Positions 13,427 to 45,009 of a stretch of 64,000 bases of DNA are shown piece after piece. Origin of the DNA: Nitrospirota bacterium (GTDB taxonomy: Bacteria; Nitrospirota; UBA9217); the NCBI GenBank assembly GCA_035516965.1, contig DATIZR010000093.1, positions 43,255 to 107,254 on the forward strand, in the 5' to 3' direction. A model generated the notes under the pieces. The model was not told the DNA's origin, ran no database searches, and was given only the letters and a program-made list of their open reading frames with translations. The stretch's first letter is position 1; each line of letters opens with the position of its first letter. The translations under genes and the position numbers were made by a program.

Positions 13427-13448
13427 GTAAGTTTGGTAAAATTGCGCT

Positions 13449-17178: not shown

Positions 17179-17847
17179 GCCGTCTCCCTGTCAAGAGCAT
17201 TTAACATATGCATTTCATTATAGCAGATATAGCAAAATGACCCTCCCGGCAGAAGCCCGGAGGCTCACAAATCAATTTGTTAATCGCTGTTGCTCTTGAT
17301 CTTTTTAATTGGTCCTCTTCATAGACAAAAGTCCCCATTTCATTTAAGTCTGTACACGGTACACCGTAGTCTCGGGAACGGGTGCCCTCTTTGCTTGAGT
17401 ACGTCCTACGCCTAATGGAAATTTCTCCCCTTTGGCCAGCGTCAGGATTCTAATCTTTTATGTCGAGAACGTATCCCAGACCGTCAATACTTTTTTACTG
17501 CTACTGTTCAATGTGGTGAACAAATTTATATTCCCTTCAAACGTCGTATTTTTGACGATTCTCAACATCCCTGCGTTGTATTTTCATCTATTAACTTATA
17601 TTGTAATTCAATCAGTTATACCATGCGTTGAAGTCTTTTCCCTCCCTTCCCTCATGGTATTAACATTGCATAATAACGCATTACGAAGCATCTTTTTCTA
17701 TTCATAGTGTTTGATTGTTGCTTTATAAGGAAGTCGCTCCTTGCACTTATGAATAGTAACGGGATCAAGGGATGCCGTCTTACTATCATAATGAATGGCC
17801 CTGTTATCGGGCAGAATTCTACCCCATGGAAGCGGAAGAGGTCTCTG

Positions 17848-18447
17848 ATGAAAAGAGAGAATGTAGTCTGGTATGAGGCTACCGTTGTTCGAGAGCGCAG
17901 GGAAAAACTGAACGGTCATAAGAGCACTGTCGTCTGGTTCACTGGCCTGCCAAGTTCTGGAAAATCCACGATCGCTCATTGCGTCGAGGAAAAATTGTTC
18001 CAGATGGGCTGCCGGACCCTTGTTCTCGACGGAGACAATGTGCGGCACGGACTCTGCTCTGACCTCGGATTTTCCGCGGAAGACAGGGCCGAGAACATCC
18101 GCCGTATCGGCGAGGTGGCTAAGCTTTTTGTCGAGGCAGGAATAATCGTGCTGACGGCGTTCATCTCTCCCTTTCAGGCGAACCGCGACCAAGTACGGCA
18201 GCTGGTCGGAGACGTCAACTTCATCGAGATCTTCTGCGACTGCCCGATCGAGGTCTGTGAGGAGCGCGATCCCAAGGGGCATTACCAAAAGGCGCGTGAT
18301 GGCGTCATTCAACACTTCACCGGGATATCCGCGCCCTATGAAGCACCGGTCAACTGTCACCTCGCGCTGAAGACCGAACAGTATTCACCGGAAAAATGCT
18401 CAGCGCAGGTGATCGAGCTGCTCATGGAACGGGGTATTCTAAGTTAA
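17848..18447 (+). CDS. cysC: adenylylsulfate (APS) kinase
   Basis: P-loop WFTGLPSSGKSTIA, LDGDNVRHGL, FISPF motifs. ATG at 17848 with GGAAGAGG RBS (ORF track extends upstream to 17707). Confidence 0.85.
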   Translation: MKRENVVWYEATVVRERREKLNGHKSTVVWFTGLPSSGKSTIAHCVEEKLFQMGCRTLVLDGDNVRHGLCSDLGFSAEDRAENIRRIGEVAKLFVEAGIIVLTAFISPFQANRDQVRQLVGDVNFIEIFCDCPIEVCEERDPKGHYQKARDGVIQHFTGISAPYEAPVNCHLALKTEQYSPEKCSAQVIELLMERGILS

Positions 18448-18623
18448 GGACTGTCGATTATCGCCCAGCAAGGCACCGCTTATGACGACGCTTCATTGCA
18501 GATTGATCCGCAATACTTCAGCTGCGTTCATAAAAAAACCTAAAGTTTTCAGCCCGAATGCCGATACGCTAAATAGGAGCAGAAGTGAGAAACTAATACG
18601 CATGACAAAACCCGGGCGTTAAA

Positions 18624-19829
18624 ATGTCCATATCATCAGTAAGTTCAACAAATACGATCGCCGATGCACTCTTCTCGGCCATGAGCGACCAGCAAACGCA
18701 GCTGACAGCGTTGGCGCAGACCGCCCTGTCCACAGGTGCTGATCGCGCCATGAACGGCGATTACGAAGGCGCGACGCGAGAGTTCAGACGTTCCATCGGC
18801 CTGGATTCTTCTCCCCAGAATGCCGTGACGGCATATCATCTTCTTGCGACGTCCTATATTCAGATGGGGCGGACTGAGGACGCGATCAAGGCATATCAGT
18901 CATCGATCCGCATGGCGCCGACTGATGACACCGCTCACCTCAATTTAGGCAATATCTATTTCAGCCAGGGGCGCTACAACGAAGCTGAAGCAGAATATCG
19001 GTCTGCAGTGAGAAACAATCCGACTTCCTCTACAAATCTGTTTTCACTCGGTCAGGTGTATCTTGCCACTGACCGTAACCAGCTGGCGGAAACAACCTTT
19101 AAACGGGTGATCCAGATGGATGGTAGTCAATATGGCGGATATTATGCGCTGGGGCAGACTTACGCCAAGGCAGGAAGGCAGGAGGATGCAATCTCCGAGT
19201 TTCAAAAGGTCATCAGCCTGAAGAAGGATTTTTATCAGGTGCATGTGGATCTTGGATACGCATATGCTGACCTTGGCCAGACGTCAAAAGCAAAAGATGA
19301 ACTGAGCATTCTGAATGATAAAGCGCCGAACCTGGCCTCTGTTCTGAGCGGATACCTCGATCAGATCGCTAAACCAAAGATCCTTGCTGCATACAACGTC
19401 AGCGGATTTGCAAACACCCTTGGTCCCGGCACGAAAGTGTCCACAATGGACAAATCCTTAACAATGCCGGGTGCATCACACGAATTCAACATGGTATTCA
19501 TGTTCACGAAAGACATGGATCTCTCGTCAATTACGAATCCTTTTAACTGGTCCATTGCCAAGGCAGCCTATGGTGCTGCCGGAGGCCCCTACAACTGGGG
19601 ATTGCCGACACCTGCGACCGATGTCAACATATCGCCGGTACCGATACGTGTCACCTATGCGCCAGATGCCCGGTCCGCCACTGTTTCCTTCCTGATCAAG
19701 CAGAATGCCAGCGCCAATGGTACGATCGATCCATCGCACATTAGGTTCAAATTCAATGGCAAAGATGTTTATGGAAACACTATGGACACATCTGCAGACG
19801 AATATAGCGGCATTTCAAAGATCGTCTGA
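18624..19829 (+). CDS. TPR-repeat protein with C-terminal domain of unknown function
   Basis: Repeated A-x-x-Y/L-x-x-G-x-x-Y TPR units (AYHLLATSYIQMGRTEDAIKAYQ, HLNLGNIYFSQGRYNEAE, LFSLGQVYLAT, YYALGQTYAKAGRQEDAI). The C-terminal 150 aa has no recognisable motif. Confidence 0.55.
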   Translation: MSISSVSSTNTIADALFSAMSDQQTQLTALAQTALSTGADRAMNGDYEGATREFRRSIGLDSSPQNAVTAYHLLATSYIQMGRTEDAIKAYQSSIRMAPTDDTAHLNLGNIYFSQGRYNEAEAEYRSAVRNNPTSSTNLFSLGQVYLATDRNQLAETTFKRVIQMDGSQYGGYYALGQTYAKAGRQEDAISEFQKVISLKKDFYQVHVDLGYAYADLGQTSKAKDELSILNDKAPNLASVLSGYLDQIAKPKILAAYNVSGFANTLGPGTKVSTMDKSLTMPGASHEFNMVFMFTKDMDLSSITNPFNWSIAKAAYGAAGGPYNWGLPTPATDVNISPVPIRVTYAPDARSATVSFLIKQNASANGTIDPSHIRFKFNGKDVYGNTMDTSADEYSGISKIV

Positions 19830-20420
19830 TGGGCGCTGCGTCTGCTATGTGTAGCATAAAAACCTACTCCTCACATCGTGATCTGCGAATCTTAGTGTCA
19901 TTGTCCTTGCAGCTTAAGCCTTTCTGACTCAAAACATCACAGTACGTCACAACACAAGTTCTCGCGCAAAGCCGCCAAGGTCACAAAAAAACGGTTTTTT
20001 GATCCAATCGTTGTTCCGGCTTGCTCAGGTCAGTTCTAGTCGTTTATCGAGTCGACATGATACTGTTTACCGTAAGCTTATTTTAGCAAATTGAGAGTGC
20101 CAATATATTGTCAGCTCTTTCCGTTTTCTAGTAACCCTACCACATTTACCTAAGGCATATACAACATATTATTCCATATTTACAATTAGTTATAATCTAG
20201 GTTCCATATAACAAGTCTATTGTTATGTGGTATTAATGTTGCATCTAAGCATGATGACAGTATTATTTTGTTCCGGTTTTTGACAGATTCACTCATCTGA
20301 AATGCCTATCAAGTAGAAGCAAGAACGATCCTGAATCCAGAGATTTTCTTGAGATACAGAATGCGGGCGACGTTGACGTTCAATAATATCAGTCAGAATA
20401 TGGAAAAGTTGATGTAAAAA

Positions 20421-21227
20421 ATGAAAGAAAAAGTGGACAAATACCCAGTACGTCGCCATGACAAGCTGGTTAATTTTATCATTTGTGGTACGCAGAAGGG
20501 CGGTACTACTGCGTTGGATGAATATCTACGAGAGCACCCCGAGATATGCATGGCCGAAAAGAAAGAGGTACACTTTTTCGATCGTGAAAATTTTTTTCGT
20601 GATATGACGCCTGACTATGCCTGGTATCACTCCTCGTTCACCCCTCGAACGACGCATAAGGTGCTCGGAGAGGCAACGCCGATATATATGTATTGGAACG
20701 GCGCACCACGGCGGATCTGGGAATATAACCCTGCAATGAAGCTGATCGTCGTATTGCGAAATCCCATCGACAGGGCCTATTCTCACTGGAACATGGAGCG
20801 TTCCAGAAATGCCGATACGTTATCATTCTGGGATGCTATCCAAAAAGAATCGGAGAGATGTCGAGAAGCATTGCCATATCAACACAGGATCTATAGCTAT
20901 GTTGATAGAGGCTTCTATTTGGGGCAGCTGCGAAGACTTTGGCTGTACTTTAAAAAAGATCATGTCTTGATCCTGAAAAACGAGTATCTGAGGAATCGGC
21001 CGTATGAGGCACTTCGGGAGGTCTGCGATTTTCTTGAGGTCGCCTGTTTTGACCGGATCGCTATCAAGAACGTTCATTCGCGGCCTTATGAATCGACCAT
21101 GAGCACAAGAGAACGACATTTCCTGCAGAATATCTATGAGCATGAGATCCTCAGTATTGAGCGGGTTCTTGGATGGGATTGCAGCGACTGGCTCACCGCG
21201 GAATGCGGTACGGGAGAGAGCACATGA
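20421..21227 (+). CDS. sulfotransferase family protein (PAPS-dependent)
   Basis: 5-prime-PSB motif IICGTQKGGTTAL and 3-prime-PB motif VVLRNPIDRAYSHW. Confidence 0.8.
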   Translation: MKEKVDKYPVRRHDKLVNFIICGTQKGGTTALDEYLREHPEICMAEKKEVHFFDRENFFRDMTPDYAWYHSSFTPRTTHKVLGEATPIYMYWNGAPRRIWEYNPAMKLIVVLRNPIDRAYSHWNMERSRNADTLSFWDAIQKESERCREALPYQHRIYSYVDRGFYLGQLRRLWLYFKKDHVLILKNEYLRNRPYEALREVCDFLEVACFDRIAIKNVHSRPYESTMSTRERHFLQNIYEHEILSIERVLGWDCSDWLTAECGTGEST

Positions 21228-22081
21228 CATCAGGTCCGGCAGCTGAACTCGTCGAAAAAATACGGGACAAACAGTGCGTCTTCACCATTACCGCCGGACG
21301 TACCGGAACAAACTATCTTCAAAAACTATTCGCTCTCTTCCCTGATACGCTCAGTGTGCATGAAGGAGCGCCGGATTTCGTTCATGTATTAAGAAGAGCG
21401 CAGCAGAACCCTGAAGTTGCCTACAGCTTCTGCCTGCAGCATAAGCTGCCGTTCATCGCCGCTATCGATCAAAAAAGATACGTCGAAACCAGCCACCTGT
21501 TCTGTAAAGGCTTCGTCGAGTCGTTCCTGAAGTGCGGCGTTGTACCGCATATTATAATACTCAGAAGACCTCCTCGGGAGATTGCAGTGAGCAATCTTGG
21601 GCTGAGCACGGTCCCGTCACGCACCGTCCATGGATTAATGTATCTGCTGTCACCGGACGATCCGAATGTATTGCCGCTGCCTCAATGGCAATACCTGAAC
21701 GATTATCAACTATGCTTTTGGTACAGCCTGGAGATCGAAAGGAGGCAAAGAAATTATGCTGATATGTTCAGGCAGCTCGGCGCACGTGTCGTCGAGACGT
21801 CACTTTCCGAACTGCTTGATTTCAGCGCCTTCGTACTCGTTGCATCACAGCTGGGTTTCGAGGCTGACATTCATGATAGAAGCTTGAATGACAATTTTCT
21901 GGAACTCTCTGCCGTGAAACACAACGAAAAACAAAAAAATCCCATAACAGCGACGCCCGAGGAGTTTACGGCTGCCGAAGAAGAGGTCTGGGAAAAGATC
22001 TATTATTACGATCCCTTGCTAAGGGATAGAATTACACAGCAATATGAAAAACCGGTGGTAGGCAAAATGGCGGTTTACTAG
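21224..22081 (+). CDS. sulfotransferase-like P-loop protein
   Basis: TAGRTGTNYL P-loop-like PAPS-binding motif. 4-nt overlap (ATGA) with the upstream sulfotransferase. ORF track start at 21173 is an upstream extension. Confidence 0.55.
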   Translation: MTSGPAAELVEKIRDKQCVFTITAGRTGTNYLQKLFALFPDTLSVHEGAPDFVHVLRRAQQNPEVAYSFCLQHKLPFIAAIDQKRYVETSHLFCKGFVESFLKCGVVPHIIILRRPPREIAVSNLGLSTVPSRTVHGLMYLLSPDDPNVLPLPQWQYLNDYQLCFWYSLEIERRQRNYADMFRQLGARVVETSLSELLDFSAFVLVASQLGFEADIHDRSLNDNFLELSAVKHNEKQKNPITATPEEFTAAEEEVWEKIYYYDPLLRDRITQQYEKPVVGKMAVY

Positions 22082-22141
22082 CGCAGTTGCACCGTCTTTT
22101 CTGGTTTATAGCCGAAATTTAAGGTCAAACAACGTGCTCGT

Positions 22142-24901
22142 ATGATCCTTTCTCACAAATATAAGTTCATCTTTATTAAGACAAAGAAGACTGCGGGGAC
22201 AAGCATTGAGATCGCCCTCTCAAAGTTTTGTGGTCCCACTGACATCATTACTCCCATTACACCAGCTGATGAAACCATCAGAGCACGTCTCGGTTACAGG
22301 GGACCTCAGAATTACTCGTCATCTCTGGGACCGTTCTATAACCATATCTCGGCCAGGGAAATTGCAGAAAAAATAGATCCCGCCGTTTGGGAAACCTATT
22401 ATAAATTTTGTGTTGAGCGTAACCCATGGGACAAGGTCGTTTCGTGGTACTACTGGGAAAATAGGACAGAGCCGCGCCCCCCTCTATCCCAATTTATTCG
22501 TTCCGGACGGGCGGCTCTGGTTGGCGGACCTGGAGGCTTTAACCTGTATACAATCAATGACCGTATCGTTGTCGACAAGGTATTACTGTATGAAAATCTT
22601 CAACAGGAAATGGAAGCTCTTGCACTACGATTAAACTTGCCTGAAGTGCCTCAGTTACCGAATGCAAAAGCAGAGTTCAGGGTCGACAAGAAACCTGTTA
22701 CCGCATTCTATGGCGAGCAGGATCGGAACACAATTGCAACAATATTTTCCCGTGAAATTTCGCTTTTTGGATACGCATTCCCCCGGAAGAACGGCGAGGA
22801 GACTGCAGCTCAGCCGGTTGATTCGCGAAAAGGAATATTTTCTTTGGGAAAGAAAGGTCTTGATGAAAACGCTCTAGGGCACAATAGAGGATATCGCGGC
22901 GCCCCGGGTCAGCTCGATATGATCATTCACGAAGCTGACACGCTAAGCCAGGCGGGCGAAATAGACAAGGCGATCAAACTGCTCGCCGATTGGTTGTCGA
23001 AGGAGCCGCACACCACGGAGATCATTTATGTCATGACAGAGATTTTGCTGCGGGCCAAACATTGTAAAGAATCCCTTGAGGCGCTGAGCGCCCTTCCTGA
23101 TACCGAACGAAACACTACCAGGTTCCTCCTGCTGTCGGGCTATAGTAGGGAGGGATTGGGTGAATATTCAGAAGCAGAACGGCTGTTGAATATTGTACTG
23201 GCCAAGGAACCGCGTAATTCGGTCGCATTGAATCTGGCAGGTATCTTGGCCTATAGGGAAAATAAAAAGGATCTGGCAAACGGTTTCTTTCGTAAAGCAA
23301 TGGAAAGCGATCCGGACTATGGCGAACCATATACGAATCTTGGTGTTCTCGCGTGGGCATCAGGTGACAGGCCGGCAGGAATGGAACTACTGGAACGCGG
23401 CATGGCTCTTTGCCCCACCTCGCCGGACGCCGCGTCCTCCTATCATTCTGCGGCAGTAGCGTTATCCTCCTTCGCCCGCGCGGAGCAGGTATTTCGCAAG
23501 GCACTGACCTTGTTTCCCCTCAACAAGGCAATTGCGTTCTTTCTCATTGACCTCCTCATTCAACAGAGCAAATGGGAGCAGGCAATGCCGATCATCGAAC
23601 AGGCTATGGTCGATCATGGTATCGATGATGGCATCCTTGCTGCTGCCATCGAGGTCCGCAGAAGGACCGGACCGCAGGACTCGGTGCGCACGCACGATAA
23701 GAACAGTTCTCTGTCGCTCTGCATGATCGTAAAGAACGAGGAAAAGAATCTTGCCCGGTGCCTCATGAGCGTCAAACCTGTCGTCGACGAGATGATCGTG
23801 GTTGATACCGGTTCGAGTGACAAAACCCGCGACATCGCAACCGCGTTTGGCGCGAAACTGTACGATGTCCCCTGGACCGGCGATTTTTCCGAAGTGAGAA
23901 ACGCCTCCATCGCCAGGGCCTCGGGAGACTGGATCCTGATTCTGGATGGTGATGAGGTTATATCCCCCCGTGACCACCCGGAACTGATGCGATTGACCGA
24001 CACGACAGGTCGACCAGTATCCTATTCGTTTGTGACCAGGAACTATATTCCGCAGATCCACAAAACAGGCTGGACAGCCAATGACGGAACCTGCGGGGAG
24101 GAAGCGGGCGCTGGATGGCTTGGGAGTTCCAAAGTCCGGTTATTCCCTCGAGATGGCCGCATACAGTTCGTCAATCCTGTACATGAACTGGTGGAACCGT
24201 CACTCGGCAGGGCCGGTATTGGCATACAAAAATGCAGCATCCCGATCCATCATTATGGAAAGCTGGATCAGGAAAAGGTCAACGCCAAATGGGAGGAATA
24301 CTATATTCTTGGTAAAAGGAAGCTTGAGGCCGCCGGGGAAAATGCGGATGCCCTCAGGGAGTTGGCCATCCAGGCCGGAGAGCTAAAACGTTTTGGGGAG
24401 GCGGTAGATCTCTGGAAACGGGCCATCAAATTGCAGCCTCGAATGGAAAGCGCATACCTCAACCTGGCATCCGTCTATCTGCAGCAGGATAAGTTCAATA
24501 CCGCCCTCGCGGTCGCTGAAAAAGCGCTGGAAATAAATCCTGACTCAAAGGAAGTGCTCTGCAACTACGCGCTTTGCGAACTGTATTCAGGCAGCATAGA
24601 GCGTGCGAAAACGGTCCTCGGGGGAGTTCTGAGCAAGACTCCGGGATACCCGGCTGCTGACATCATGTTGGCAATAGCTCACCTCGTCTCAGGCAACAAG
24701 AATGAAGGGATCGCCGTATTCAACGGTCTCGGCATCTCAGGTCCTGCGCTTGTCGAATGCGTTTTGCCTTTTGCAGAAAAATTGCTGCGTGCCGGACGAA
24801 AAGGACCTGCGCATATATTGACCGAGATTGCACGCGAAGTTGAAAGCGCTATTGATGTGGATCTTGAAAGAATACACCTCGGAACATTCTCAAATACATG
24901 A
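22142..24901 (+). CDS. multidomain fusion protein: Sulfotransfer_2-like N-terminus - TPR repeats - family 2 glycosyltransferase - TPR repeats
   Basis: FIFIKTKKTAGTS (Sulfotransfer_2 start motif). TPR units. GT2 core LSLCMIVKNEEKNLARCL...VVDTGSSDKTRDIA...DGDEVI. C-terminal TPRs. Confidence 0.7.
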   Translation: MILSHKYKFIFIKTKKTAGTSIEIALSKFCGPTDIITPITPADETIRARLGYRGPQNYSSSLGPFYNHISAREIAEKIDPAVWETYYKFCVERNPWDKVVSWYYWENRTEPRPPLSQFIRSGRAALVGGPGGFNLYTINDRIVVDKVLLYENLQQEMEALALRLNLPEVPQLPNAKAEFRVDKKPVTAFYGEQDRNTIATIFSREISLFGYAFPRKNGEETAAQPVDSRKGIFSLGKKGLDENALGHNRGYRGAPGQLDMIIHEADTLSQAGEIDKAIKLLADWLSKEPHTTEIIYVMTEILLRAKHCKESLEALSALPDTERNTTRFLLLSGYSREGLGEYSEAERLLNIVLAKEPRNSVALNLAGILAYRENKKDLANGFFRKAMESDPDYGEPYTNLGVLAWASGDRPAGMELLERGMALCPTSPDAASSYHSAAVALSSFARAEQVFRKALTLFPLNKAIAFFLIDLLIQQSKWEQAMPIIEQAMVDHGIDDGILAAAIEVRRRTGPQDSVRTHDKNSSLSLCMIVKNEEKNLARCLMSVKPVVDEMIVVDTGSSDKTRDIATAFGAKLYDVPWTGDFSEVRNASIARASGDWILILDGDEVISPRDHPELMRLTDTTGRPVSYSFVTRNYIPQIHKTGWTANDGTCGEEAGAGWLGSSKVRLFPRDGRIQFVNPVHELVEPSLGRAGIGIQKCSIPIHHYGKLDQEKVNAKWEEYYILGKRKLEAAGENADALRELAIQAGELKRFGEAVDLWKRAIKLQPRMESAYLNLASVYLQQDKFNTALAVAEKALEINPDSKEVLCNYALCELYSGSIERAKTVLGGVLSKTPGYPAADIMLAIAHLVSGNKNEGIAVFNGLGISGPALVECVLPFAEKLLRAGRKGPAHILTEIAREVESAIDVDLERIHLGTFSNT

Positions 24902-24911
24902 GGCATGAGCT

Positions 24912-27900
24912 ATGACCATACATGACAGAAAAGACGATCGAATCAACGTGCCTGTCTGCATCGCGGGAATGCACCGTTCCGGGACTTCCATGGTGGCAAA
25001 ACTGCTTCATCAATCCGGGCTGTATCTGGGAAAGGATGATGAACTTCTTGGACCGGCGTCGGATAACCCCGATGGCTTCTGGGAAAATATTCAGTTCGTC
25101 AGGATAAATGACGAGCTCCTTTTGAAAGCGGGAGGAGCGTGGGATCTTCCGCCGGACATGCGAAATGGATGGGGAAATATTCCAGGCCTTGGATCTCTGA
25201 GGGAAAAGGCGCAAAAAACAGTTCATCAATTTGAAATGCATGGGCCCTGGGGATGGAAGGATCCGCGTAACAGTCTCACGGCGGAATTTTGGCAGGACAT
25301 AATCGGAAAAGAGCATTTACGCTTTGTCATTTGCGTAAGAAACCCGCTTGAGGTTGCGCGTTCGATCCACAAGCGCAGCTACAATTCGTTCATCTTCGGT
25401 CTTAATCTGTGGCATCAGTATAACCGCGCGGTAATGGACCTGACCAGCCCTTCGCAAAGGATGATCACCCATTACGACTCCTTTTTTTCGGATCCGGAAG
25501 AAGAATTGAACAGGCTGCTGGTATTTGCCGGGATCCCTGCAATGCAGTCGGCTGTTCGCAGCGCGTGTTCCCACATCTCCACCTCTCTTCGCCATCATTC
25601 CTCCAGCGGGCACGATCTCATCAAGGCAGGCGCATCGGCAAAACTTGTTGATCTCTACGAGGAGCTTTGCGCGCAGTCAGGTCCCGTGTATCAGAGGACC
25701 TGCAGCTCCGCGGTTTCAAAAACTGCGCCCCCCCCGGAAAGAACTATTTCTAACTTTCCCGGCAAGAAGGGTTTCATTTCAATCGTTATCCTCACCTTCA
25801 ATCAGCTTACCTATACAAGAGAGTGTGTTGAGAGCATCAGAAAGCACACGTCCGAACCCCATGAGATCATTTTTGTAGATAACGGGTCAACAGACGGAAC
25901 GGTGAAATGGCTGAAAGAGCTCATTAAAAAAAATGATAATTATGCACTGATTGAGAATACGACCAATCTCGGCTTTTCCAAGGGGTGTAACCAAGGCATC
26001 AAGGAATCTTCAGGCGAATACATCCTGCTCCTCAATAACGATGTCGTAGTTACCGAAGACTGGCTTTCCGGCATGCTGGAATGCCTGAACAACGCTCCCG
26101 ACGTCGGCATCGTGGGCCCCATGACGAACAGCATCAGCGGACCGCAGATGGTCGCGCATGTTGACTATTCCTCTCCGGACCAACTCGCGGCGTACGCAAG
26201 GAAGTTCAGGGATGAACACCGGCATCGCCGTATCCCGCTGCGAAGGATCGTCGGTTTCTGCATGCTCTTCAGGCGCGATCTTGTGGAAAGAATCGGATCA
26301 CTTGACGAAAGCTTTGGAACGGGCAATTACGAGGACGACGATTTCTGCCTGAGATCGGCATTGGCCGGCTGCCGGAATTTCATTGCCGGCGATGTGTTTA
26401 TCCACCATCACGGCAGCAGAAGCTTCGTCGGCAACAATATTCATTACGGGTCGGCCATGTCGGGCAACAGGAAGATCTATAATTCCAAGTGGGGCGCGGT
26501 CAGGGCCGATACGACGCCGGGGAAAAATCTCCTTGTGATCCAGGCCCTCGGAAAGGCCGATGAACTCCATCGCAAAGACCAGTCGGACACGGCGCTGACG
26601 GTCCTCATTGACGCGTTAAAGTACGCGCCCGACGACGGAAGGATCTACTCGCACCTTACAAACATCCTGCTTGAGATAAAGCAGTACGAACAGGCACTTG
26701 ACGTGATCGATCGCGCGCCTCATCATGACACCGACGCGCACTGGCTCTGCTTGGCGGGATATTGCAGGGAAGGACTCGCATCCTATGAAGAAGCTGCAGA
26801 GCTTGCTGCCCGCGCCCTCGCACTCCGGCCTGGTTATGCATCGGCATTGAACCTTCAGGGTGTGATCGCATTTAGAAACGAAGCGCGGGCTTCGGCAGAA
26901 CCGTTCTTCCGCCAGGCTATGGCAGCCGATCCCGGCTACGGAGAACCTTATACGAACCTTGGTGTCCTGCTCTGGTCCCAGGGAGATCAGCAGGCCGGCC
27001 TCAACCTGCTTGAGCGAGGGTTCATCCTTGCTCCTGTTTCGCCGGATGCGTCAACGCTTTATCATTCTGCTGCAACGGCATCAGGAGCGTTTAACGACGC
27101 CGAGAGGAACTTTCGAGAAGCCTGTTCGCTCTATCCGGACCTCCGGAGGACCTGTTTCCTTCTTATCGATCTTCTCCTGAAGCAGGACAAATACCGGGAA
27201 GCGCTGGCACTGACCCATGACGCAATGATAGCATTCGGCATCGACGACGGCATCCTGTCCGCAGCTCTTGACATCATATCAAAACTCGGGTCACCGGATG
27301 CCCTGCGTGCAAAAAAAGGTTCCGATACTCTTACGGTATGCATGATCGTCAAGAATGAAGAAGCTCATCTGCTGAAATGCCTTATGAGCATTGAGTCCCT
27401 GGCGGATGAGATCATTGTCGTCGATACCGGGTCAACAGACAGAACGAAGGGCCTTGCCCGGTCCTTTGGCGCAAAGGTCTTTGACGTTCCCTGGACCGGT
27501 GATTTTTCCGAGGCGCGAAATGTGTCCCTCGACAAGGCATCAGGAGGCTGGATTTTTGTTCTCGATGCCGATGAGGTGATATCGCCCAAAGACCATGATG
27601 CGATCAGAAAACTCATCAGCTCAACGAAAAAAGCTCCAGCTGCCTATGCTGTGACGACCCGTAATTATATTTCGGCGATGAATATCACGGGCTGGACAAT
27701 GAACAAAGGGGAATATCCGGCCGAGGAAACGGGCAGCGGCTGGAAACCGAGCACCAAGACCAGGCTTTTTACGAACGATCCGCGTATCCGTTTCGAGAAT
27801 CGCGTTCATGAGCTCGTCGAATCGTCTCTTGCAAAGATCGGGATCACTTCGAAGCCCTGCGATATTCCCGTCCATCATTATGGAAAGCTCAAGGAAGAAA

Positions 27901-28538: not shown

Positions 28539-28581
28539 CCTTGGAGGAAGAAGTTCTGGCAAGGTTGATTGTTCACACACT

Positions 28582-31500: not shown

Positions 31501-31662
31501 CTTGCGGAAATACTGGTTACGAGAACCGAGGACGCGCTCAAACGGCCTGATCAGTTCAGGACCACCAATGATACCCGTGATCGCATGTGTCAACTCGCTG
31601 AACGGAACTTTATAGGGCTTGAGAAATTTAAGAGGGGATACGATATTCGTGAAGCCCGGTAG
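28582..31662 (+). CDS. multidomain fusion protein: TPR repeats - GT9-like (heptosyltransferase-fold) glycosyltransferase - polysaccharide pyruvyl transferase domain
   Basis: At least 8 TPR units. GT9 motifs [14 protein letters not shown] and [23 protein letters not shown]-terminal [10 protein letters not shown]...[20 protein letters not shown] matches PS_pyruv_trans (CsaB/WcaK) signatures. Confidence 0.65.
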
Positions 31663-33445
31663 AAATGATCCTTGCCCCTGCGGCAGCGGAAAAAAATACA
31701 AGAAGTGCTGCGAAGGCTACGACCGTGTCAAGGATGCTGCAGAAATTCGGCAACAACCTTCCGTGTCAAGCCTCCTTCAGAGGGCAGTTGATTCTCATAA
31801 TGCAGGCAGACTCTCTGAAGCAGAGGCAATTTACCGTGGTATTCTCGAAAAGGTCCCCCGAAATGCTGATGCCCTGCATCTTCTGGGGATGATTGCCCAC
31901 CAAAAAGGAAACAACGCCGAAGCTGAACAGATGATAAGAGCCGCCATATCTTTGGACAGCTCCGTTGCGGCATTCCATGTTAACCTTGGAAAGGTCCTCA
32001 AGAAGACGGACCGGAAACATGAATCTCTTGACTGCTATCGGAAAGCGCTGTTGCTTCAACCAAACATGACTGAAGCCATCTATAATCTGGCCAATGAACT
32101 CTGCGCACGGGGGGAATATGATGAGGCGGTACAGCATTACAGGAATGTCATCAACATTCAGCCCGATCATTCCTATGCGTGCAATAATTTAAGCCTTGCT
32201 CTCAGGAGCATGGGGCAAACAGAGGAAGCCCTGCACTATGTAACACGGGCATTGAACAGAGACCCGGGGAATGTTGAGGCGTATAACAATCTGGGAGTTC
32301 TCCTGTCAAACAAGGGACAGCTTGAGGCATCCATTGACGCTCTCAACAAGGCTATTTCGATCAAGCCCGACTACAAGGACGCGCATTGGAATCTGGCCCT
32401 GCCCTTGCTGCAACTGGGTGACCTCGACACTGGCTGGAAAAAATATGAACTGAGGGACCTCAAGAGGGATGCTTCTGCCAGGAAGTCATTCCCCTATCCA
32501 CGGTGGGACGGATCTTCATTGAACGACAAAACCTTGTTCGTTTATGCCGAGCAGGGAGTTGGTGATGAGATCATGTTCGCTTCAGTGTTGATCGACGTCA
32601 TACCTCGGACTAAACGGTGCATTGTTGAATGCAATGACCGTCTTGTTCCCCTTTTTTCGCGCTCTTTTCCTGAAGCACGGGTGATCCCTATGGTCAAAGG
32701 GGCACTTCCGGAGCTTCTGCATACTATCGACGTGTCGGCACCAATCGGCAGCCTGCCGATGCATCTGCGTCAGGACCTGAGAGGTTTTCCTCGACGGAGA
32801 TCATATCTGGTTGCAGACCCTGATAAGATCTCTGACTGGCAGAACCGCTTTCGGGCCCTCGGGGACGGCCTGAAGGTCGGCATATCGTGGAGAGGTGGCA
32901 GTGAGGCCAGCGTGCGACACTTGCGTTCAACAAAGCTTGACCAATGGACAGAACTTTTTAGAGTACCTGGCGCTCACTTCATTAACCTTCAATATGGTGA
33001 CTGCAGGCTGGAGATCGAAGAAGCAAAAGAACTCCTGGGGACAACTATTTACGATTGGAAAGATGCTGATCCCCTTAAGGATCTCGATAATTTCGCTGCC
33101 CAGATCTCGGCCCTTGATCTGGTCATTACCGTGGATAACTCGACCTTGCATATGGCGGGAGCTCTGGGCGTTCCTACCTGGGCAGTGATCCCTAAAGGAA
33201 ACAACTGGCGATGGCTGCAGGACGTCGAGGATACGCCGTGGTATCCCAGTGTGCGCCTATTCAGCCAGACGAAACTTCATAACTGGACAGACGCATTTTT
33301 ACGCCTAAGGGACTTGCTTCACCGTGCAGCAAGCGGCGGTACAACCATTGAACAGTTGACCAAGTCTGTGGCTGCTTCTTATCAAGATCGTCGGCCAGCT
33401 TTAGAATCAAACGTTGAGAAGACGCATATCAAAATGACCGCCTGA
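31649..33445 (+). CDS. SEC-C motif - TPR repeats - GT9-like glycosyltransferase fusion protein
   Basis: N-terminal [18 protein letters not shown] (SEC-C zinc motif), TPR units, [38 protein letters not shown] at 31649 overlaps the upstream stop (ORF track start ATG 31619 is an alternative). Confidence 0.65.
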
Positions 33446-33475
33446 TGATGTTGGCCTCAAGAGAGGATAGCTGAT

Positions 33476-36346
33476 ATGAGAACAGGAAGAAACGACCCTT
33501 GCCCATGCGGCAGTGGTAAAAAATTCAAAAAATGCTGCGAACCGACGGAAACGTCACCATCCGCGGCAGTCCCAGGCCCGGCTCACTCTTTGGCAGGCAT
33601 GCTCCGGGAAGCCATTGACCATCACCAGACAGGTAGGCTGGGTGATGCAGAAAGGCTCTACCGGTCCATCCTTGAGAAAAGACCGAACGACGCCGACGCA
33701 CTTCATCTCCTCGGCGTGATCTGCCACCAGATCGGCAACCTTGCTGAAGCTGAGACCCTGATCAAAAGAGCGATCGCTGTTGACAACAAGGCCGCGTTAT
33801 TCCATGTGAACCTCGGGAATGTGCTCAAACAACGAGGCAAGCAGGATGAAGCCATGGCCTCGTTCCGCAAGGCTCTCTCGCTTCAGCCTGATCTCGCCGA
33901 AGCGCACTATAACCTGGCAAACGAGCTTTACGCAAACAATGATGTGGAAAAGGCGGTTACCCATTACACAAAGGCTTTGCGGACGAATCCTCAAATGGCA
34001 GAAGCACATTATAACCTCGGCATCGCATTGCAGACGCAGGACAGGATAGAGGAAGCGATATCAAGCTATTCGCGCGCCGTCGCGATCCGGCCCGATCATC
34101 ACAATGCTCACTATAATCTCGGCATTCTCTTCCAGGAGATGGAAAGGTATAAGGATGCCGCAATGCACTATGACCGTGCCTTGAAATACGATCCGGGCAA
34201 TGCGAACGCGCACTATTATCGGGGCAATGCGTATCTGGAGCTCGATCGGTATGACACAGCCGAGGCATCCTTCAGATCTGCAATAGCACTTCGGCCGGAT
34301 TTTGCTGATGCCCACAACGATCTCTCGGTTGCCTTACGAAAACAGGGACGTACGGAAGACGCCCTTGCTTCCGCGCGACGCTCCCTGGAGATCACCCCCG
34401 GCTTTGCGGCCTATAATAATCTGGGCATAACATACCGGGAGGATGGAAGAATTGCAGAAGCTATCGAAAATGCTAAAAGAGCGATCGCACTAAAACCGGA
34501 CTCTCCTGATGTTCAATGGAATCTCGCGCTTGCCCTCCTGCATCATGGTGAACTCGCACCGGGTTGGCAAAGGTACGAATGCCGTGCTTTGAAAACTGAC
34601 TCTAGCCTGAGGGTGTTCCCCTATCCGCGCTGGGCTGGAAGCCCCCTGAAGGACAAGACATTATTTATCTTTGCCGAGCAGGGCATAGGCGATCAGATCA
34701 TGTTCGCATCCCTTTTTCCCGATATCATGCGGCGTGAGCCGAAACACTGCATAGCAGATTGCGACCCGCGGCTGGTGCCGCTCTTTGCCAGATCATTTCC
34801 CGGAGTAGCGGTCATTCCCGCGGCTAGAGAGACCCTGGTGGATAGACTTCCTGCCATTGATCTGGCCATCCCCATGGGCAGCCTTCCGATGCATCTGCGC
34901 CCTGATCTTATAAGCTTTCCGCAGCAACGCTCATTTCTGGTTCCCGATGCCGAAAAGGTCGCACTCTGGAGCAGCCGTTTCAACAGGCTCGGAACGGGGT
35001 TGAAGATTGGAATATCCTGGAGGGGAGGCAAGGATGCCAGCGTCCGCAATCTGCGCTCGACAACGCTTGCGCAGTGGTCCCGTCTTTTCACGGTGCCGGG
35101 TTTACAGTTCGTGAACTTACAATACGGGGACTGCGCTCAAGAGCTTCTGACCGCTAAAAAGGACCTTGGCGTCACGATCCACGATTGGGACGACGCAGAC
35201 CCGCTCAAGGACCTCGACGGCTTCGCGGCACAGATTGCGGCCCTGGACCTTGTGATCTCCGTGGATAACGCCACCGTGCACATGGCCGGAGCGCTTGGTA
35301 TTCCGGCATGGGTATTATTGCCCAGGGGCTGCGACTGGAGATGGATGAAGGACTTTGAAGACAGCCCGTGGTATTCTTCGGTCAGGCTGTTCCGTCAACA
35401 GGCGCACGGAATGTGGGGAGAGGTCTTCGAGCCGGTCGCCGAATCACTGAGAACAATGACTCCCCGGGCGCTGGCCTCAGGGAACAATGACTGTTTTTTA
35501 CCACCGGTCAAGAGGTCCTATCTGTCCGCAACATCATCAGTCGAAACGATGCATTCGAAAACAGCGATCAGCAATCTCAACCTGCGACTTTCTGAGATCA
35601 TGCAGAACAGGATATCGGTAAAAACAGCGGTCGAAGTTAGAGAAATAGATTCACTGTCCGCGACTGAGCAGAGCCTCTTTGACAGGCCTATCTTTATCCT
35701 TGGAGTGCCGCGTTCGGGGACCTCAATGGTTGCAGGCTTATTGCATGAATGCGGTGCATGGGCAGGGAAAACCGTGCTGGGATCACCGGAAAATCCGAAG
35801 GGGTTCTACGAGCATATTGTTCTAAGAGAAACGATGAATAAAAAAATTCTTTCTTCTCTTAACTGCGACCCCTTAGGGGTCAAGGCCCTCCCGGAAATTG
35901 ATCAACTGCCGGATATCCCGGATCTGGGCAATATCGTAAAGCAGGTTATTCAAGCTGAGGGCTACACTGAAGACAGGCCGTGGCTATTTAAAGATCCCAA
36001 GTTGTCCCTTATATGGCCTATATTGAGAGCGGCTTTTCCCTCCGCGCGTTGGATAATCGTGAGAAGAAAGAATGAGGATATTATCAGGTCATGCTTGAAC
36101 ACTCATTTTATGGTCCGTCATTCGACTGATCCGTTGTTCTGGCGCTCCTGGATCGATGAGTACCTCGATAGACTGGATAGGTTGAAAGGATCCGGCGTAT
36201 GGTGGAGAGAAGTATGGCCGCATGAGCTTGCCTCAGGAGACTTCGGCGTCCTGCATCAACTGATCAACGAACTTGATCTGAACTGGAACGAACAAATCGT
36301 CGAGGAATTTATTCTGCCGGGCTCATGGCATGCTTCAACAACATGA
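33476..36346 (+). CDS. SEC-C motif - TPR repeats - GT9-like glycosyltransferase - C-terminal sulfotransferase fusion protein
   Basis: [21 protein letters not shown] units, FAEQGIGDQIMFAS, ISVDNATVHMAGALGIPAWVLL, then PIFILGVPRSGTSMVAGLL P-loop sulfotransferase domain. Confidence 0.65.
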   Translation: MRTGRNDPCPCGSGKKFKKCCEPTETSPSAAVPGPAHSLAGMLREAIDHHQTGRLGDAERLYRSILEKRPNDADALHLLGVICHQIGNLAEAETLIKRAIAVDNKAALFHVNLGNVLKQRGKQDEAMASFRKALSLQPDLAEAHYNLANELYANNDVEKAVTHYTKALRTNPQMAEAHYNLGIALQTQDRIEEAISSYSRAVAIRPDHHNAHYNLGILFQEMERYKDAAMHYDRALKYDPGNANAHYYRGNAYLELDRYDTAEASFRSAIALRPDFADAHNDLSVALRKQGRTEDALASARRSLEITPGFAAYNNLGITYREDGRIAEAIENAKRAIALKPDSPDVQWNLALALLHHGELAPGWQRYECRALKTDSSLRVFPYPRWAGSPLKDKTLFIFAEQGIGDQIMFASLFPDIMRREPKHCIADCDPRLVPLFARSFPGVAVIPAARETLVDRLPAIDLAIPMGSLPMHLRPDLISFPQQRSFLVPDAEKVALWSSRFNRLGTGLKIGISWRGGKDASVRNLRSTTLAQWSRLFTVPGLQFVNLQYGDCAQELLTAKKDLGVTIHDWDDADPLKDLDGFAAQIAALDLVISVDNATVHMAGALGIPAWVLLPRGCDWRWMKDFEDSPWYSSVRLFRQQAHGMWGEVFEPVAESLRTMTPRALASGNNDCFLPPVKRSYLSATSSVETMHSKTAISNLNLRLSEIMQNRISVKTAVEVREIDSLSATEQSLFDRPIFILGVPRSGTSMVAGLLHECGAWAGKTVLGSPENPKGFYEHIVLRETMNKKILSSLNCDPLGVKALPEIDQLPDIPDLGNIVKQVIQAEGYTEDRPWLFKDPKLSLIWPILRAAFPSARWIIVRRKNEDIIRSCLNTHFMVRHSTDPLFWRSWIDEYLDRLDRLKGSGVWWREVWPHELASGDFGVLHQLINELDLNWNEQIVEEFILPGSWHASTT

Positions 36347-36375
36347 AAGCCCCTGCAAGAGAGAGGGGCTTCTTC
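36347..36375. terminator. candidate bidirectional hairpin between convergent genes
   Basis: aagcccct / aggggctt 8-bp inverted repeat with 9-nt loop immediately after the stop at 36346, followed by ttcttc. Confidence 0.3.
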
Positions 36376-36398
36376 AAGGCAGCATGTGACAGGGTACT

Positions 36399-36782
36399 TC
36401 AGATAGCAGCGGGTGAGCCTCTGAGACCAGCCGCAATATTGATGTTGATGTTGATAATGGCCGCAAGCTTTTCCGGAACGGGCTGCGCCATGACCTCGAG
36501 AATGCGTTTGTCGATGAAGAGACTGAGCGACAGGATGTCCTCCCGGATCTTTCTGGGCATCGCGTTGTCCGAACCGGCAAGCTCGCTCTGGAATATGCTC
36601 CAGATTCGCTGGTTATACCGGAGCGCCTCGTCGAGACGTGCATCCCGGTCGGTTGCATCCCAGTTATTCTGCACATTCTGCAGCATGAGGGCGGCTTTCG
36701 TCAATACCGACGCCTCCAGCTCACGACCTGACTGAGTTGTCTTTTGGACCGTCCGGTATGCTTCCAGTTGATTTGCGAGCAT
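36399..36782 (-). CDS. flaF: flagellar biosynthesis regulator FlaF
   Basis: LEAYRTVQKTTQSGRELEASVLTKAALML...RYNQRIWSIF matches the FlaF family pattern known from Caulobacter-type flagellin regulation. Overlaps flbT by 62 nt. Confidence 0.6.
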   Translation of the reverse strand: MLANQLEAYRTVQKTTQSGRELEASVLTKAALMLQNVQNNWDATDRDARLDEALRYNQRIWSIFQSELAGSDNAMPRKIREDILSLSLFIDKRILEVMAQPVPEKLAAIINININIAAGLRGSPAAI

Positions 36783-37161
36783 TGTTCAAGACCTCCTGTT
36801 CATATTCTATCAGTTTCTGCGTCAGCTTCAGCGCCTGGTAGTAACGGCTGCTCAGGATGTTTGCGCTGATCTGGTCTATCATGCCCAGCGTGCTGGGCGC
36901 CGCGGTCACAACATCCCGCACGAGCTTCCAGTAGCTGTTGTGGTGCACAACAAGGTTTTTCTCGTCCACATACATGAGCTGGACGGTGAAGTAGATGCGC
37001 TTGCAGGGCGTGTCCGCGTCCTGTTCGCGGAGAATGTCCTTGTCCCTCAGTATCGGAACATTGTTCTCGACCATCAGGTCGCACCGGCTTCCGCCGTTCT
37101 GGACGACCGCTCCGCCGATGATCAGACGTTCATGGGGTTTTAAATTGATTTTCAGGGCCAT
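36721..37161 (-). CDS. flbT: flagellar biosynthesis repressor FlbT
   Basis: MALKINLKPHERLIIGGAVVQNGGSRCDLMVENNVPILRDKDIL...ADTPCKRIYFTVQLMYVD is closely similar to the FlbT family N-terminus (MALKxxLKPGERIxxGxxVIxNG...VPILRxKDIM...ADTPxKRIYxxVQLMYID). Confidence 0.75.
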   Translation of the reverse strand: MALKINLKPHERLIIGGAVVQNGGSRCDLMVENNVPILRDKDILREQDADTPCKRIYFTVQLMYVDEKNLVVHHNSYWKLVRDVVTAAPSTLGMIDQISANILSSRYYQALKLTQKLIEYEQEVLNNARKSTGSIPDGPKDNSVRS

Positions 37162-37198
37162 AGCCTTCCGAATCCGTCAAACCGAAAATATATCAGCT

Positions 37199-37681
37199 TT
37201 ATATTTTTACATTCACGATAGTTCCATGCTGCACGTGGTCCGCTGTCTGCGCTCGCTTCGGACTGATCGTTTCCTTATATTGCTTGAGGTCCGCGAGGGC
37301 GGCCGAAACTTCCCTGTCCGTGGACTTATCCGTCAGTTTGTTCGCCGTCAGTTTTTCTTTTAATTCAGGTGGGAGGGAAGACTTCCCTATCTCTTCCTGA
37401 ACTCCCTTGATCCCCTTGATCAGATCGAGTCTCTGAGGACTTCCCAGAGGGAAGAACGGTGGAAAACTGAACATGATCGTTTTCAGCTGATCTTTAATGT
37501 AGTTGGTATTCGTCAAACTGGTCATTACCTGCGGCTCACGGATACCGGAGCTGCCTGTTGCTGATGAATTGAAGGTCTCCGATGATCTGGTCTGTGTTGA
37601 AACAGGTGAATTGCCCTTTCTCGCAGACAGTTGAGAACCATCCGCCTGGCTTGCCAGCATGTTAATGCCATTGATATCCAT
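37199..37681 (-). CDS. hypothetical protein (flagellin-locus associated, possibly FlaG-like)
   Basis: 160-aa ORF with low-complexity polar N-terminus and a conserved-looking C-terminal half. Sits between flagellin and flbT on the same strand. No confident family assignment. Confidence 0.4.
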   Translation of the reverse strand: MDINGINMLASQADGSQLSARKGNSPVSTQTRSSETFNSSATGSSGIREPQVMTSLTNTNYIKDQLKTIMFSFPPFFPLGSPQRLDLIKGIKGVQEEIGKSSLPPELKEKLTANKLTDKSTDREVSAALADLKQYKETISPKRAQTADHVQHGTIVNVKI

Positions 37682-37699
37682 AATTGCGCCTCCGGAGTT

Positions 37700-37732
37700 T
37701 AGAAGAAGACGGGAGGCGAATCACCTCCCGTC
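37700..37732 (-). terminator. intrinsic terminator downstream of flagellin gene
   Basis: Perfect 9-bp GC-rich inverted repeat gacgggagg / cctcccgtc (37708-37716 / 37724-37732) with 7-nt loop. On the minus strand the stem is followed by TTCTTCT. Confidence 0.55.
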
Positions 37733-37751
37733 TCGGTCCCAGATCCGTAAA

Positions 37752-38582
37752 CTAGGCAAACAGCCTCAGTACTGATTGCGCTGCCTGCGAAGAGAGGCTC
37801 AGTGCCGTTGTGCCCAGAGACTGCCTGGTCTGCAGCATCAGCATGTTCGCACCTTCTTCGTTCATGTCAGCGAGCGTCAAGCTGTCAGAGCCCGCGGTGA
37901 GGGTATTCACCATTTGGGTCGTGAAGTCCTGGCGTGCCTGAATGATGCTGAGACCGGCCGAAAGTGCACCAGAGGTCGTTCTCAGCGTGGTCTTCGCCGT
38001 ATTGAGCGCGGTTATGGTAGTATTGATGTCCGAAACACTCGAAGAGCTGGTTATGCCCACCGTACCGGTGTCGATCCCGAGGTCAGCCGATTTTGATGCA
38101 ATGGATTTAACGGTGAGCGATGAGGTATTGTCCTCGTTAAAGTTCACGACGAGATCGCTCGAACCATTCAGCAGGTTTACGCCCTGATAATTGGCGTCGG
38201 TGACAACCGTATCCAGCTGGGCCATGAGGGTCGAATACTGCATCCCGATGACCGACAGTGCCGTAGTATCCGTCGTGGAAAGTGCTTGCTGGGCAAGACC
38301 TTTGGCAGCATCGATAAGCGTGCTGATCGTCGTGATACCGTTGTTTGCGACCTGGATCGCCTGGATACCCTGGCCCATGCCGTCCTTCAGAGCGGACAGG
38401 TCCGCTGCGCGGCCGTTCAGGGCCTGTGCTGCAAAGAATGAAACGGGGTTATCCAGCGCGCTGTTGACCTTCTTGCCCGAGGACAAACGTTCCTGTGTCC
38501 TGTTGAGAAGATCGACGGTGCTCTGAAGGCTGACGAGGTTGCTGCGCATTCCTGAGGTTAAGGTGATGTCATTGATAGCCAT
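37752..38582 (-). CDS. fliC: flagellin (short, 276 aa, Caulobacter-type)
   Basis: Flagellin N-domain (RLSSGKKVNSALDNPVSFFAAQ...IQVANNGITT) and C-domain (ANMLMLQTRQSLGTTALSLSSQAAQSVLRLF). AAGGAGA RBS. Perfect sigma28 promoter upstream. Confidence 0.8.
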   Translation of the reverse strand: MAINDITLTSGMRSNLVSLQSTVDLLNRTQERLSSGKKVNSALDNPVSFFAAQALNGRAADLSALKDGMGQGIQAIQVANNGITTISTLIDAAKGLAQQALSTTDTTALSVIGMQYSTLMAQLDTVVTDANYQGVNLLNGSSDLVVNFNEDNTSSLTVKSIASKSADLGIDTGTVGITSSSSVSDINTTITALNTAKTTLRTTSGALSAGLSIIQARQDFTTQMVNTLTAGSDSLTLADMNEEGANMLMLQTRQSLGTTALSLSSQAAQSVLRLFA

Positions 38583-38752: not shown

Positions 38753-38779
38753 TTATCGGCCGCGGGAGGGAAAACTTTA
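38753..38779 (-). promoter_or_regulatory. sigma28 (FliA) class promoter for flagellin: TAAAGTTT-N11-GCCGATAA
   Basis: Reverse complement of 38753-38779 reads TAAAGTTTTCCCTCCCGCGGCCGATAA, an exact match to the enterobacterial sigma28 consensus. About 170 nt upstream of the flagellin ATG. Confidence 0.7.
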
Positions 38780-41928: not shown

Positions 41929-41935
41929 GGGTGTC

Positions 41936-45006: not shown

Positions 45007-45009
45007 GCC

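Follow-up and report, generated by a model that had tools for sequence, protein, structure and literature searches.

A flagellin-adjacent Nitrospirota island of sulfotransferases and TPR-linked glycosyltransferase fusions: a candidate system for sulfated and pyruvylated flagellin glycans

We analyzed a 64,000-nucleotide (nt) stretch of contig DATIZR010000093.1 (the window) from a Nitrospirota metagenome-assembled genome (MAG), focusing on a gene island next to a flagellin gene that is a candidate for flagellin modification with a sulfated glycan. The island (17848-36346) belongs to a flagellar cluster: a fliK-like gene lies to its left, and fla-flbT-flaF, motAB and fliFGI lie to its right. It forms a single co-directional block on the plus strand. 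Based on the open reading frame (ORF) list and on Pfam and NCBIfam scans, it comprises cysC, a gene for a tetratricopeptide repeat (TPR) protein, two stand-alone sulfotransferase genes (ST1 and ST2) and five genes encoding modular fusions (P5 to P9), in agreement with the coordinates and architectures proposed in a first-pass annotation of this DNA. Between ST1 and P9, adjacent genes overlap or leave gaps of no more than 61 nt, and the island proteins are deposited as HUJ19136-HUJ19149. The guanine-cytosine (GC) content of the island (51.3%) is lower than that of the right flank (61-62%) and of the left flank (54-58%), as the same annotation had noted of the block. The source samples of the organism come from wetland or soil (ERZ27256617, JGI 3300032783 and SRR8881010/11). 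Six metagenome contigs (L001-L006) proved 99.9-100% identical to the window. One of these contigs, L001, was considered as a variant island on account of its gene calls of 915, 411 and 134 amino acids (aa) and was rejected, because base-by-base comparison gave 99.9-100% identity and gene calling alone differs.

The block opens with cysC (17848-18447, ATG at 17848), encoding the adenosine 5'-phosphosulfate (APS) kinase that supplies 3'-phosphoadenosine 5'-phosphosulfate (PAPS) and recognized by both Pfam (APS_kinase, 1e-67) and NCBIfam (adenylyl-sulfate kinase, 7e-87). It is followed by the gene for a 401-aa protein (18624-19829) with Pfam TPR matches, the C-terminal ~150 aa of which returned no family in the Pfam and NCBIfam scans, and, beyond an intergenic gap, by ST1 (20421-21227), a free carbohydrate-type sulfotransferase, and ST2 (21224-22081), a probable sulfotransferase that we assign tentatively. 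The fusion P5 (22142-24901; 919 aa) joins a Sulfotransfer_2 domain, TPR, a glycosyltransferase family 2 (GT2) domain of the GmaR type and further TPR, while P6 (24912-28538; 1208 aa) carries Sulfotransfer_3, a generic GT2, TPR, a GmaR-type GT2 and TPR. In P7 (28582-31662; 1026 aa), TPR precede a GT-B domain of the FlmG class and a polysaccharide pyruvyl transferase domain; P8 (31619-33445 from a TTG, 608 aa, or 31649-33445 from a GTG, 598 aa) consists of SEC-C (5e-10), TPR and an FlmG-class GT-B domain; and P9 (33476-36346; 956 aa) adds a Sulfotransfer_3 domain (3e-10) to the same series. Beyond cysC and a weak CsaB match, NCBIfam yielded nothing further for the island proteins, and a scan of the whole window at Rfam gathering thresholds gave 0 matches.

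Convergent to the island, on the minus strand, run the genes for a 276-aa Caulobacter-type flagellin, the presumed acceptor (37752-38582; Flagellin_N, 3e-16), a conserved 160-aa protein (37199-37681) without a Pfam or NCBIfam match, FlbT (36721-37161; Pfam FlbT, 9e-44) and FlaF (36399-36782; Pfam FlaF, 3.5e-33), the last of which does not lie within the 160-aa ORF. The best matches of the flagellin in the PDB were Caulobacter crescentus FljK/L/M/N over its full length (6e-23). The short flagellin of this type and the adjoining flbT and flaF had been correctly recognized at first pass. Its central segment is 32% serine plus threonine, and the protein contains two tyrosines only. Discussion of translational control by FlaF/FlbT, of Caulobacter-type flagellins and of FlmG homologs usually centers on Alphaproteobacteria, a setting that the first-pass annotation implied and that did not hold, the host being a Nitrospirota MAG. 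All three features are thus present in Nitrospirota, with Dissulfurispiraceae among the named relatives, and FlbT relatives are encoded in at least 495 metagenome stretches. In many relatives, a homolog of the 160-aa gene (34-50% identity) is found at the equivalent position, and three assembled Nitrospirota relatives (L095-L097) have unannotated genes of 157-257 aa there; the gene probably encodes an uncharacterized flagellar factor.

The sigma28 promoter described for the flagellin gene is indeed perfect: TAAAGTTTTCCCTCCCGCGGCCGATAA (38753-38779, minus strand) conforms to TAAA-N15-GCCGATAA, read 38779-38753, with 0 mismatches, ~170 nt 5' of the flagellin ATG, which corresponds to a 5' untranslated region of ~170 nt. 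A search with the sigma28 consensus also returned a site with 1 mismatch at 18541-18567, 57 nt 5' of the island TPR gene. An extended form of the motif, TAAAGTTTTC-N10-CCGATA, occurs in exactly three copies in the window, with 0 expected by chance: the flagellin gene is preceded by one copy, a second points away from it, and the third lies ahead of the TPR gene (18541-18566, plus strand). Matching sigma28-type sites were found 5' of the homologous TPR gene in one relative (L046) and 5' of flgN in another (L077). Between the TPR gene and ST1, the gap at 19830-20420 (592 nt, AT-rich, 38.7% GC) contains no ORF of at least 100 aa, no Rfam match and no convincing terminator; a sigma70 and terminator scan of 17100-22200 was uninformative on this gap, and a sigma54 consensus scan performed no better than chance. 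The divergent copy of the extended motif (38834-38859, plus strand) faces a 71-aa ORF (38887-39102) without a family match, after which come two response-regulator genes, one of the GAF-HD-GYP type.

We then considered the sulfation capacity of the island. Both PAPS-binding motifs (5'-phosphosulfate and 3'-phosphate) are present in all five sulfotransferase domains, for example GTQKGGTT and RNPIDRAYS in ST1, and GRTGT and RRPPREIAVS in ST2. Four of the domains exceed the Pfam gathering score, namely ST1 (Sulfotransfer_1, 6e-18, 65.7 bits), P5 (24.6 bits versus 22), P6 (32.5 versus 27) and P9 (41.3 versus 27), whereas ST2 falls short of it (Sulfotransfer_1, 19.7 bits versus 22). The count of five given at first pass therefore stands for four domains, whose assignment from profile scores is solid, with ST2 tentative. 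ST1 matched PDB entry 3rnl (3e-27) and heparan sulfate glucosamine 3-O- and N-sulfotransferases (3e-18 to 1e-12), a likeness that would fit sulfation of a hexosamine and would cohere with N-acetylglucosamine (GlcNAc) transfer by GmaR-type domains. For ST2, we obtained neither a useful PDB sequence match nor a significant profile comparison with the Sulfotransfer_3 alignment, and PDB sequence searches with the domains of P5, P6 and P9 likewise returned no useful match. The Sulfotransfer_3 domains of P6 and P9 are 36% identical, and by BLAST the five domains represent four unrelated lineages, suggesting that they may serve different acceptor positions. A structural model of the P9 domain (predicted local distance difference test, pLDDT, 89.9) showed distant likeness to Stf1 and to tyrosylprotein and polyketide sulfotransferases, with template-modeling (TM) scores of ~0.45-0.5; judged from this model, the P9/P6-type fold does not reveal its acceptor.

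The domain fusions had been described as unusual, which appears to hold for one combination and not for the other. The P6-type sulfotransferase domain belongs to a family with 20,889 cluster representatives at E <=1e-3; of the best 150, 74 reach a length of 600 aa or more, and a GT2 resembling those of P5 and P6 is present in 46 of the 150. By this measure the sulfotransferase-GT2 fusion is common though uncharacterized, and neither rare nor unique. Homologs of the P9 domain are, in contrast, nearly all stand-alone proteins of ~190-260 aa: among the 75 matches listed, one (P0150) has TPR repeats and none has an FlmG-like domain. Sulfotransferases fused to FlmG-like proteins thus appear to be rare.

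One GT2 module each of P5 and P6 resembles a characterized flagellin glycosyltransferase. For the P5 GT2 and the second GT2 of P6, the best PDB match was the glycosyltransferase domain of GmaR (22ao; 7e-29 and 4e-27, respectively), with TPR downstream in both cases; next among the non-TPR matches came SunS, a peptide S-glycosyltransferase, and 7msk, a related Glyco_trans_2-like protein. Residues 255-895 of P5 and 536-1183 of P6 are 44% identical. For the first P6 GT2, the matches were to GalT1 and to enzymes of the chondroitin synthase type, which mark it as a generic domain of the extending type. GmaR transfers GlcNAc to Listeria flagellin, has its glycosyltransferase followed by TPR, and acts as an anti-repressor of MogR (PMC9638930). 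Its linker and antirepressor chains were not among the PDB matches of the P5 and P6 GT2-TPR segments, nor was any MogR-like gene noted in the window. In tblastn searches against plasmids, only generic GT2 matches were returned, with the exception of a Ralstonia solanacearum megaplasmid (CP076122.1, 1724924-1727391), which encodes a GT2 with ~30% identity to the P6 GmaR-type domain. This GT2 and a mannosyltransferase are flanked by fliE on one side and fliT-fliS-fliD-flagellin on the other, an arrangement suggestive of paired flagellin glycosylation enzymes in this plant pathogen.

For the remaining three fusions, BLASTP against Caulobacter vibrioides FlmG, whose locus we located via a primer published in the supplement of PMC7591256, gave E-values of 1e-69 (P7), 5e-67 (P8, across 557 aa) and 2e-70 (P9). 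The alignments (29-33% identity over 480-557 aa) take in the TPR region as well as the complete GT-B domain, and the three proteins are paralogs, 43-44% identical to one another. FlmG is a proven flagellin O-glycosyltransferase in which the TPR bind flagellin and the GT-B domain sets donor specificity, its known donors being the cytidine monophosphate-activated nonulosonic acids pseudaminic and legionaminic acid (CMP-Pse/Leg) (PMC7591256; bioRxiv 10.1101/2022.03.25.485807). The same domains had been labeled GT9 at first pass, which is valid at the fold level only: Glyco_transf_9 covers a motif of only ~40 aa (profile ~171-210), at or below threshold (P7, 23.2 bits; P8, 16.7; P9, 13.9; cut-off 22), while the AlphaFold model of the P8 C-terminal domain (pLDDT 89.7), for which no useful PDB match was found at the sequence level, adopts a GT-B fold with 3tov, WaaF, TibC and WaaC as the nearest solved folds (E 1e-7 to 1e-5). 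On the basis of this model, GT9 is correct as a fold and wrong as a family, and FlmG-class is the better name. The pyruvyl transferase call in P7 was sustained, with residues 678-949 covering PS_pyruv_trans nearly completely (profile 11-278 of 280; 60.9 bits versus a cut-off of 25.3; 2e-16); NCBIfam assigned CsaB at 6e-10, below the equivalog cut-off. A SEC-C zinc motif of the SecA type is present at the N-terminus of P8 (31661-31714) and P9 (33488-33544). It is shared by only the closest FlmG-like homolog among the 120 matches listed, and likewise stands at the N-terminus of a methyltransferase (10856-11704) in the equivalent island of relative L046.

To place the island in a comparative context, we retrieved 80 metagenome loci by alignment of FlbT relatives (58-80% FlbT identity), 22 of which extend at least 2.5 kb beyond flaF and were used for counting. 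A convergent GT2 gene lies beside flaF in 18 of the 22 loci, and in 13 of the 13 with at least 6 kb; most of these genes match both GT2 domains of P6. Accompanying genes were far less constant, with an FlmG-like domain in five of the 22 loci, a P6-type sulfotransferase domain in two, and neither cysC nor a pyruvyl transferase in any (0/22), and the first-pass proposal to compare relatives was answered by an island content that varies by lineage. The reduced island of L046 encodes a homolog of the TPR protein at the equivalent position, a P6 ortholog with its sulfotransferase domain, an FlmG-like protein and the SEC-C-methyltransferase. In L077, from a genome of ~32% GC, a gene for a 1884-aa sulfotransferase-GT2 protein starts 63 nt after flgN-flgK-flgL and is convergent on flaF. 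The slot contains dTDP-rhamnose genes in L030, and in L069 response-regulator genes follow flaF without an island. The assembled Nitrospirota relatives encode, in the slot beside flaF, giant GT2 fusions with radical-SAM/SPASM and B12-binding domains (L095, 10856-20441) or with several methyltransferase domains (L096, 4254-13881), and, adjoining flgL and flgK, a GT2-GT9-GT2-GT2 fusion (L097). Set against the island, the first two would imply quite different flagellin glycan chemistries within one clade. Because the GT2 is retained while the tailoring genes differ among relatives, we regard the flaF-adjacent position as a hypervariable flagellin-modification slot, of which sulfation and pyruvylation would be this lineage's version.

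Taken together, we consider the addition of a sulfated glycan to flagellin by this island rather likely. More specifically, it is probably a cytoplasmic flagellin O-glycosylation island that builds a sulfate- and pyruvate-decorated glycan on the adjacent flagellin, an interpretation that draws on the domain identities, the homology to two proven flagellin glycosyltransferases, the common promoter motif, and the conserved synteny with variable tailoring. With the flagellin type and the lack of export and priming machinery added, the same evidence supports the first-pass proposal of flagellin glycosylation. We infer the sulfate and the pyruvate on the glycan from domains only, and likewise infer the acceptor, the order of steps and the sugars. 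In the putative pathway, flagellin would be made from the sigma28 promoter under FlbT/FlaF control, and TPR domains would dock it ahead of flagellar type III export, by analogy with FlmG and Maf-1. The GmaR-type GT2 domains of P5 and P6 and the FlmG-type GT-B domains of P7, P8 and P9 would then place sugars on serines and threonines of the central segment, and the generic GT2 of P6 would lengthen the chain. Sulfate from PAPS, provided by the island APS kinase, may be transferred onto the sugars by the domains in P5, P6 and P9, by ST1 and tentatively by ST2, and the C-terminal domain of P7 may add a pyruvate ketal. The predicted outcome is a strongly anionic filament surface.

Several observations weigh against this interpretation. 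The source organism is known from metagenomes alone and the island is read from its genes; ST2 scores below its family cut-off; and no biosynthesis genes, NeuB-type included, for nonulosonic acids (Pse/Leg), the known FlmG donors, are among the annotated ORFs of the 64-kb window. The promoter evidence is partly circular because the extended motif was defined only after the three sites had been seen, and a sigma28 transcript may not reach ST1-P9 across the AT-rich gap. Since the P9/P6-type fold is nearest to Stf1 and tyrosylprotein sulfotransferases, its acceptor could also be a protein side chain. Finally, FlmG-like and P9-type sulfotransferase homologs elsewhere are mostly away from flagellin genes: three FlmG-like proteins (P0044, P0087 and P0047) are not beside flagellin, and three proteins that correspond to the P9 sulfotransferase domain alone (P0155, P0182 and P0160) have unrelated surroundings, so that family membership alone does not fix the acceptor.

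The last point is the strength of an alternative in which the island glycosylates and sulfates one or more other TPR-recognized cytoplasmic proteins instead of the adjacent flagellin. The TPR-GT-B family has more than 4,700 matches across phyla, the three examples just named being those examined in long contigs, and Caulobacter flmG itself lies in the flmEFGH cluster, apart from the flagellin genes, which would also speak for another acceptor. We nevertheless regard such an acceptor as unlikely, given that the flaF-adjacent GT2 gene is kept across diverged lineages, that the sulfotransferase-GT2 gene of L077 is in line with flgN-flgK-flgL, that the sigma28-type motif of flagellin recurs at the island TPR gene, and that the closest characterized relatives of both glycosyltransferase types are flagellin-specific enzymes. 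TPR-tethered tailoring enzymes do exist outside flagellar loci, as an unrelated metagenome contig (L010, 11733-21614) encodes large TPR fusions with sulfotransferase, methyltransferase and GT41 domains and has no flagellin gene within 10 kb.

Direct sulfation of flagellin tyrosine, serine or threonine by the Sulfotransfer_3 domains of P6 and P9, parallel to glycosylation, appears less probable still. Although human and tick tyrosylprotein sulfotransferases are among the nearest folds of the P9 domain (E 2e-5 to 1e-4), and the domain is tethered to protein-binding TPR, the structural likeness is weak (TM 0.45-0.5), Stf1 ranks above the tyrosylprotein enzymes, and comparable scores were obtained for the sulfotransferase domains of olefin synthase and curacin, whose substrates are not proteins. 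The scarcity of tyrosine in the flagellin, the clearly carbohydrate-type ST1 and the fusion to glycosyltransferases are all better suited to the tailoring of sugars. Lastly, the island could be an envelope polysaccharide cluster making a sulfated, pyruvylated polymer, be it lipopolysaccharide (LPS) O-antigen, capsule or exopolysaccharide (EPS), and targeting of LPS/EPS had been named at first pass as an outcome that would refute the flagellin proposal. GT2 enzymes, CsaB-like pyruvyl transferases and sulfotransferases are typical of polysaccharide loci, and lower GC is usual for surface-polysaccharide islands. Among the island genes, however, no Pfam domain of a flippase, polymerase, ABC exporter, chain-length regulator or priming phosphoglycosyl transferase was found, no island protein has a predicted membrane segment (maximum 19-residue hydropathy <1.9 in each), every large enzyme contains TPR protein-binding modules, and both glycosyltransferase types are related to protein O-glycosyltransferases. 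An envelope polymer is therefore very improbable.

Returning to flagellin as the acceptor, we hold a broader composite proposal to have somewhat less than an even chance of being correct in all its parts. It states that the filament carries sulfated and pyruvylated O-glycans, as the first sulfated bacterial flagellin; that these are made by single-polypeptide, TPR-docking assembly-line enzymes combining GmaR- or FlmG-type glycosyltransferases with sulfo-, pyruvyl-, methyl- or radical-SAM domains; and that the metagenomic sulfotransferase-GT2 family consists of protein-glycan sulfating enzymes. Flagellin glycosylation is widespread, and to our knowledge the known decorations are neutral or carboxylated sugars, in one case phosphorylated. 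Sulfate on a bacterial flagellin would, if true, constitute a new class of modification that alters filament charge, with possible effects on recognition by phages and predators, on mineral adhesion and on immune detection. A large, unannotated family of sulfotransferase-GT2 fusions would gain a concrete, testable function, and the fusions would lend themselves as ready templates for engineering cytoplasmic proteins that carry sulfated glycans, a goal stated by the authors of the FlmG study (PMC7591256).

Two further features of the window deserve mention. A second low-GC block (6001-13448; 45.6% GC) encodes an S-adenosylmethionine-dependent methyltransferase, a FabG-like reductase, two ketosynthases, a FabA-like dehydratase, an acyl carrier protein and a flavin adenine dinucleotide-dependent amine oxidase, and by this gene content resembles a fatty-acid or polyketide-like set of type II. 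Genes for cyclic di-GMP and two-component signaling are dense near the flagellin locus (4213-5983 and 39122-52656), including HDOD and GGDEF proteins, a response regulator-GAF-HD-GYP protein, two motAB pairs, PilZ proteins (41116-41928 and 51598-52656) and a 1555-aa multi-PAS hybrid kinase.

Compared with known systems, the island shares with the flagellin glycosylation islands of Pseudomonas, Campylobacter, Aeromonas, Geobacillus and Enterobacteriaceae (PMC5109656, PMC4875605) its nature as a lineage-variable block adjoining flagellin in the flagellar regulon, as well as its deviant GC, soluble glycosyltransferases and sugar-tailoring enzymes. It differs in that tailoring is assigned here to sulfotransferases, an APS kinase and a pyruvyl transferase, and in its giant TPR fusion polypeptides. 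The term 'sulfotransferase' does not occur in those two papers, and the phrases 'sulfated flagellin', 'flagellin sulfation' and 'sulfation of flagellin' did not occur in the literature searched, which was limited; a literature search on FgtA/Fgt1 architecture yielded nothing usable. With the FlmG systems of C. crescentus and Brevundimonas subvibrioides, P7, P8 and P9 have in common the N-terminal TPR and C-terminal GT-B domain, aligned end to end, and the locus has the short Caulobacter-type partner flagellin together with FlaF and FlbT. The host is instead a Nitrospirota bacterium with three paralogs of ~30% identity to FlmG, P8 and P9 gain an N-terminal SEC-C, P7 a C-terminal pyruvyl transferase and P9 a sulfotransferase, and no Pse/Leg pathway is seen in the window. 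The protein heptosyltransferases TibC/BAHT and the LPS heptosyltransferases (GT9) resemble the P8 GT-B domain in fold, TibC being also a protein O-glycosyltransferase, whereas identity to P8 is 10-15% and the TM score to its model ~0.5. GmaR of Listeria monocytogenes has the same succession of GT2 and TPR as P5 and P6, but here the module sits in proteins of 919-1208 aa with sulfotransferase domains, accompanied in P6 by a second GT2, and lacks matches to the GmaR linker and antirepressor chains.

The nearest precedent for sulfation is Halobacterium salinarum, in which glycoproteins including archaellins carry sulfated N-glycans (PMC11980604), so that there too the protein of a motility filament bears sulfated sugars produced by dedicated sulfotransferases. 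The archaeal glycans are N-linked, are put together on a lipid carrier and modify a non-homologous filament, in contrast to the bacterial, cytoplasmic and O-linked modification predicted here. Flagellin glycosylation islands, FlmG and GmaR are already known. By domain homology, the present island brings together both known classes of TPR-guided flagellin O-glycosyltransferases, FlmG and GmaR, far outside the clades in which they were defined and fused to tailoring domains; what would be new is the phylum, this co-occurrence, the tailoring-domain fusions and, above all, the predicted sulfation module.

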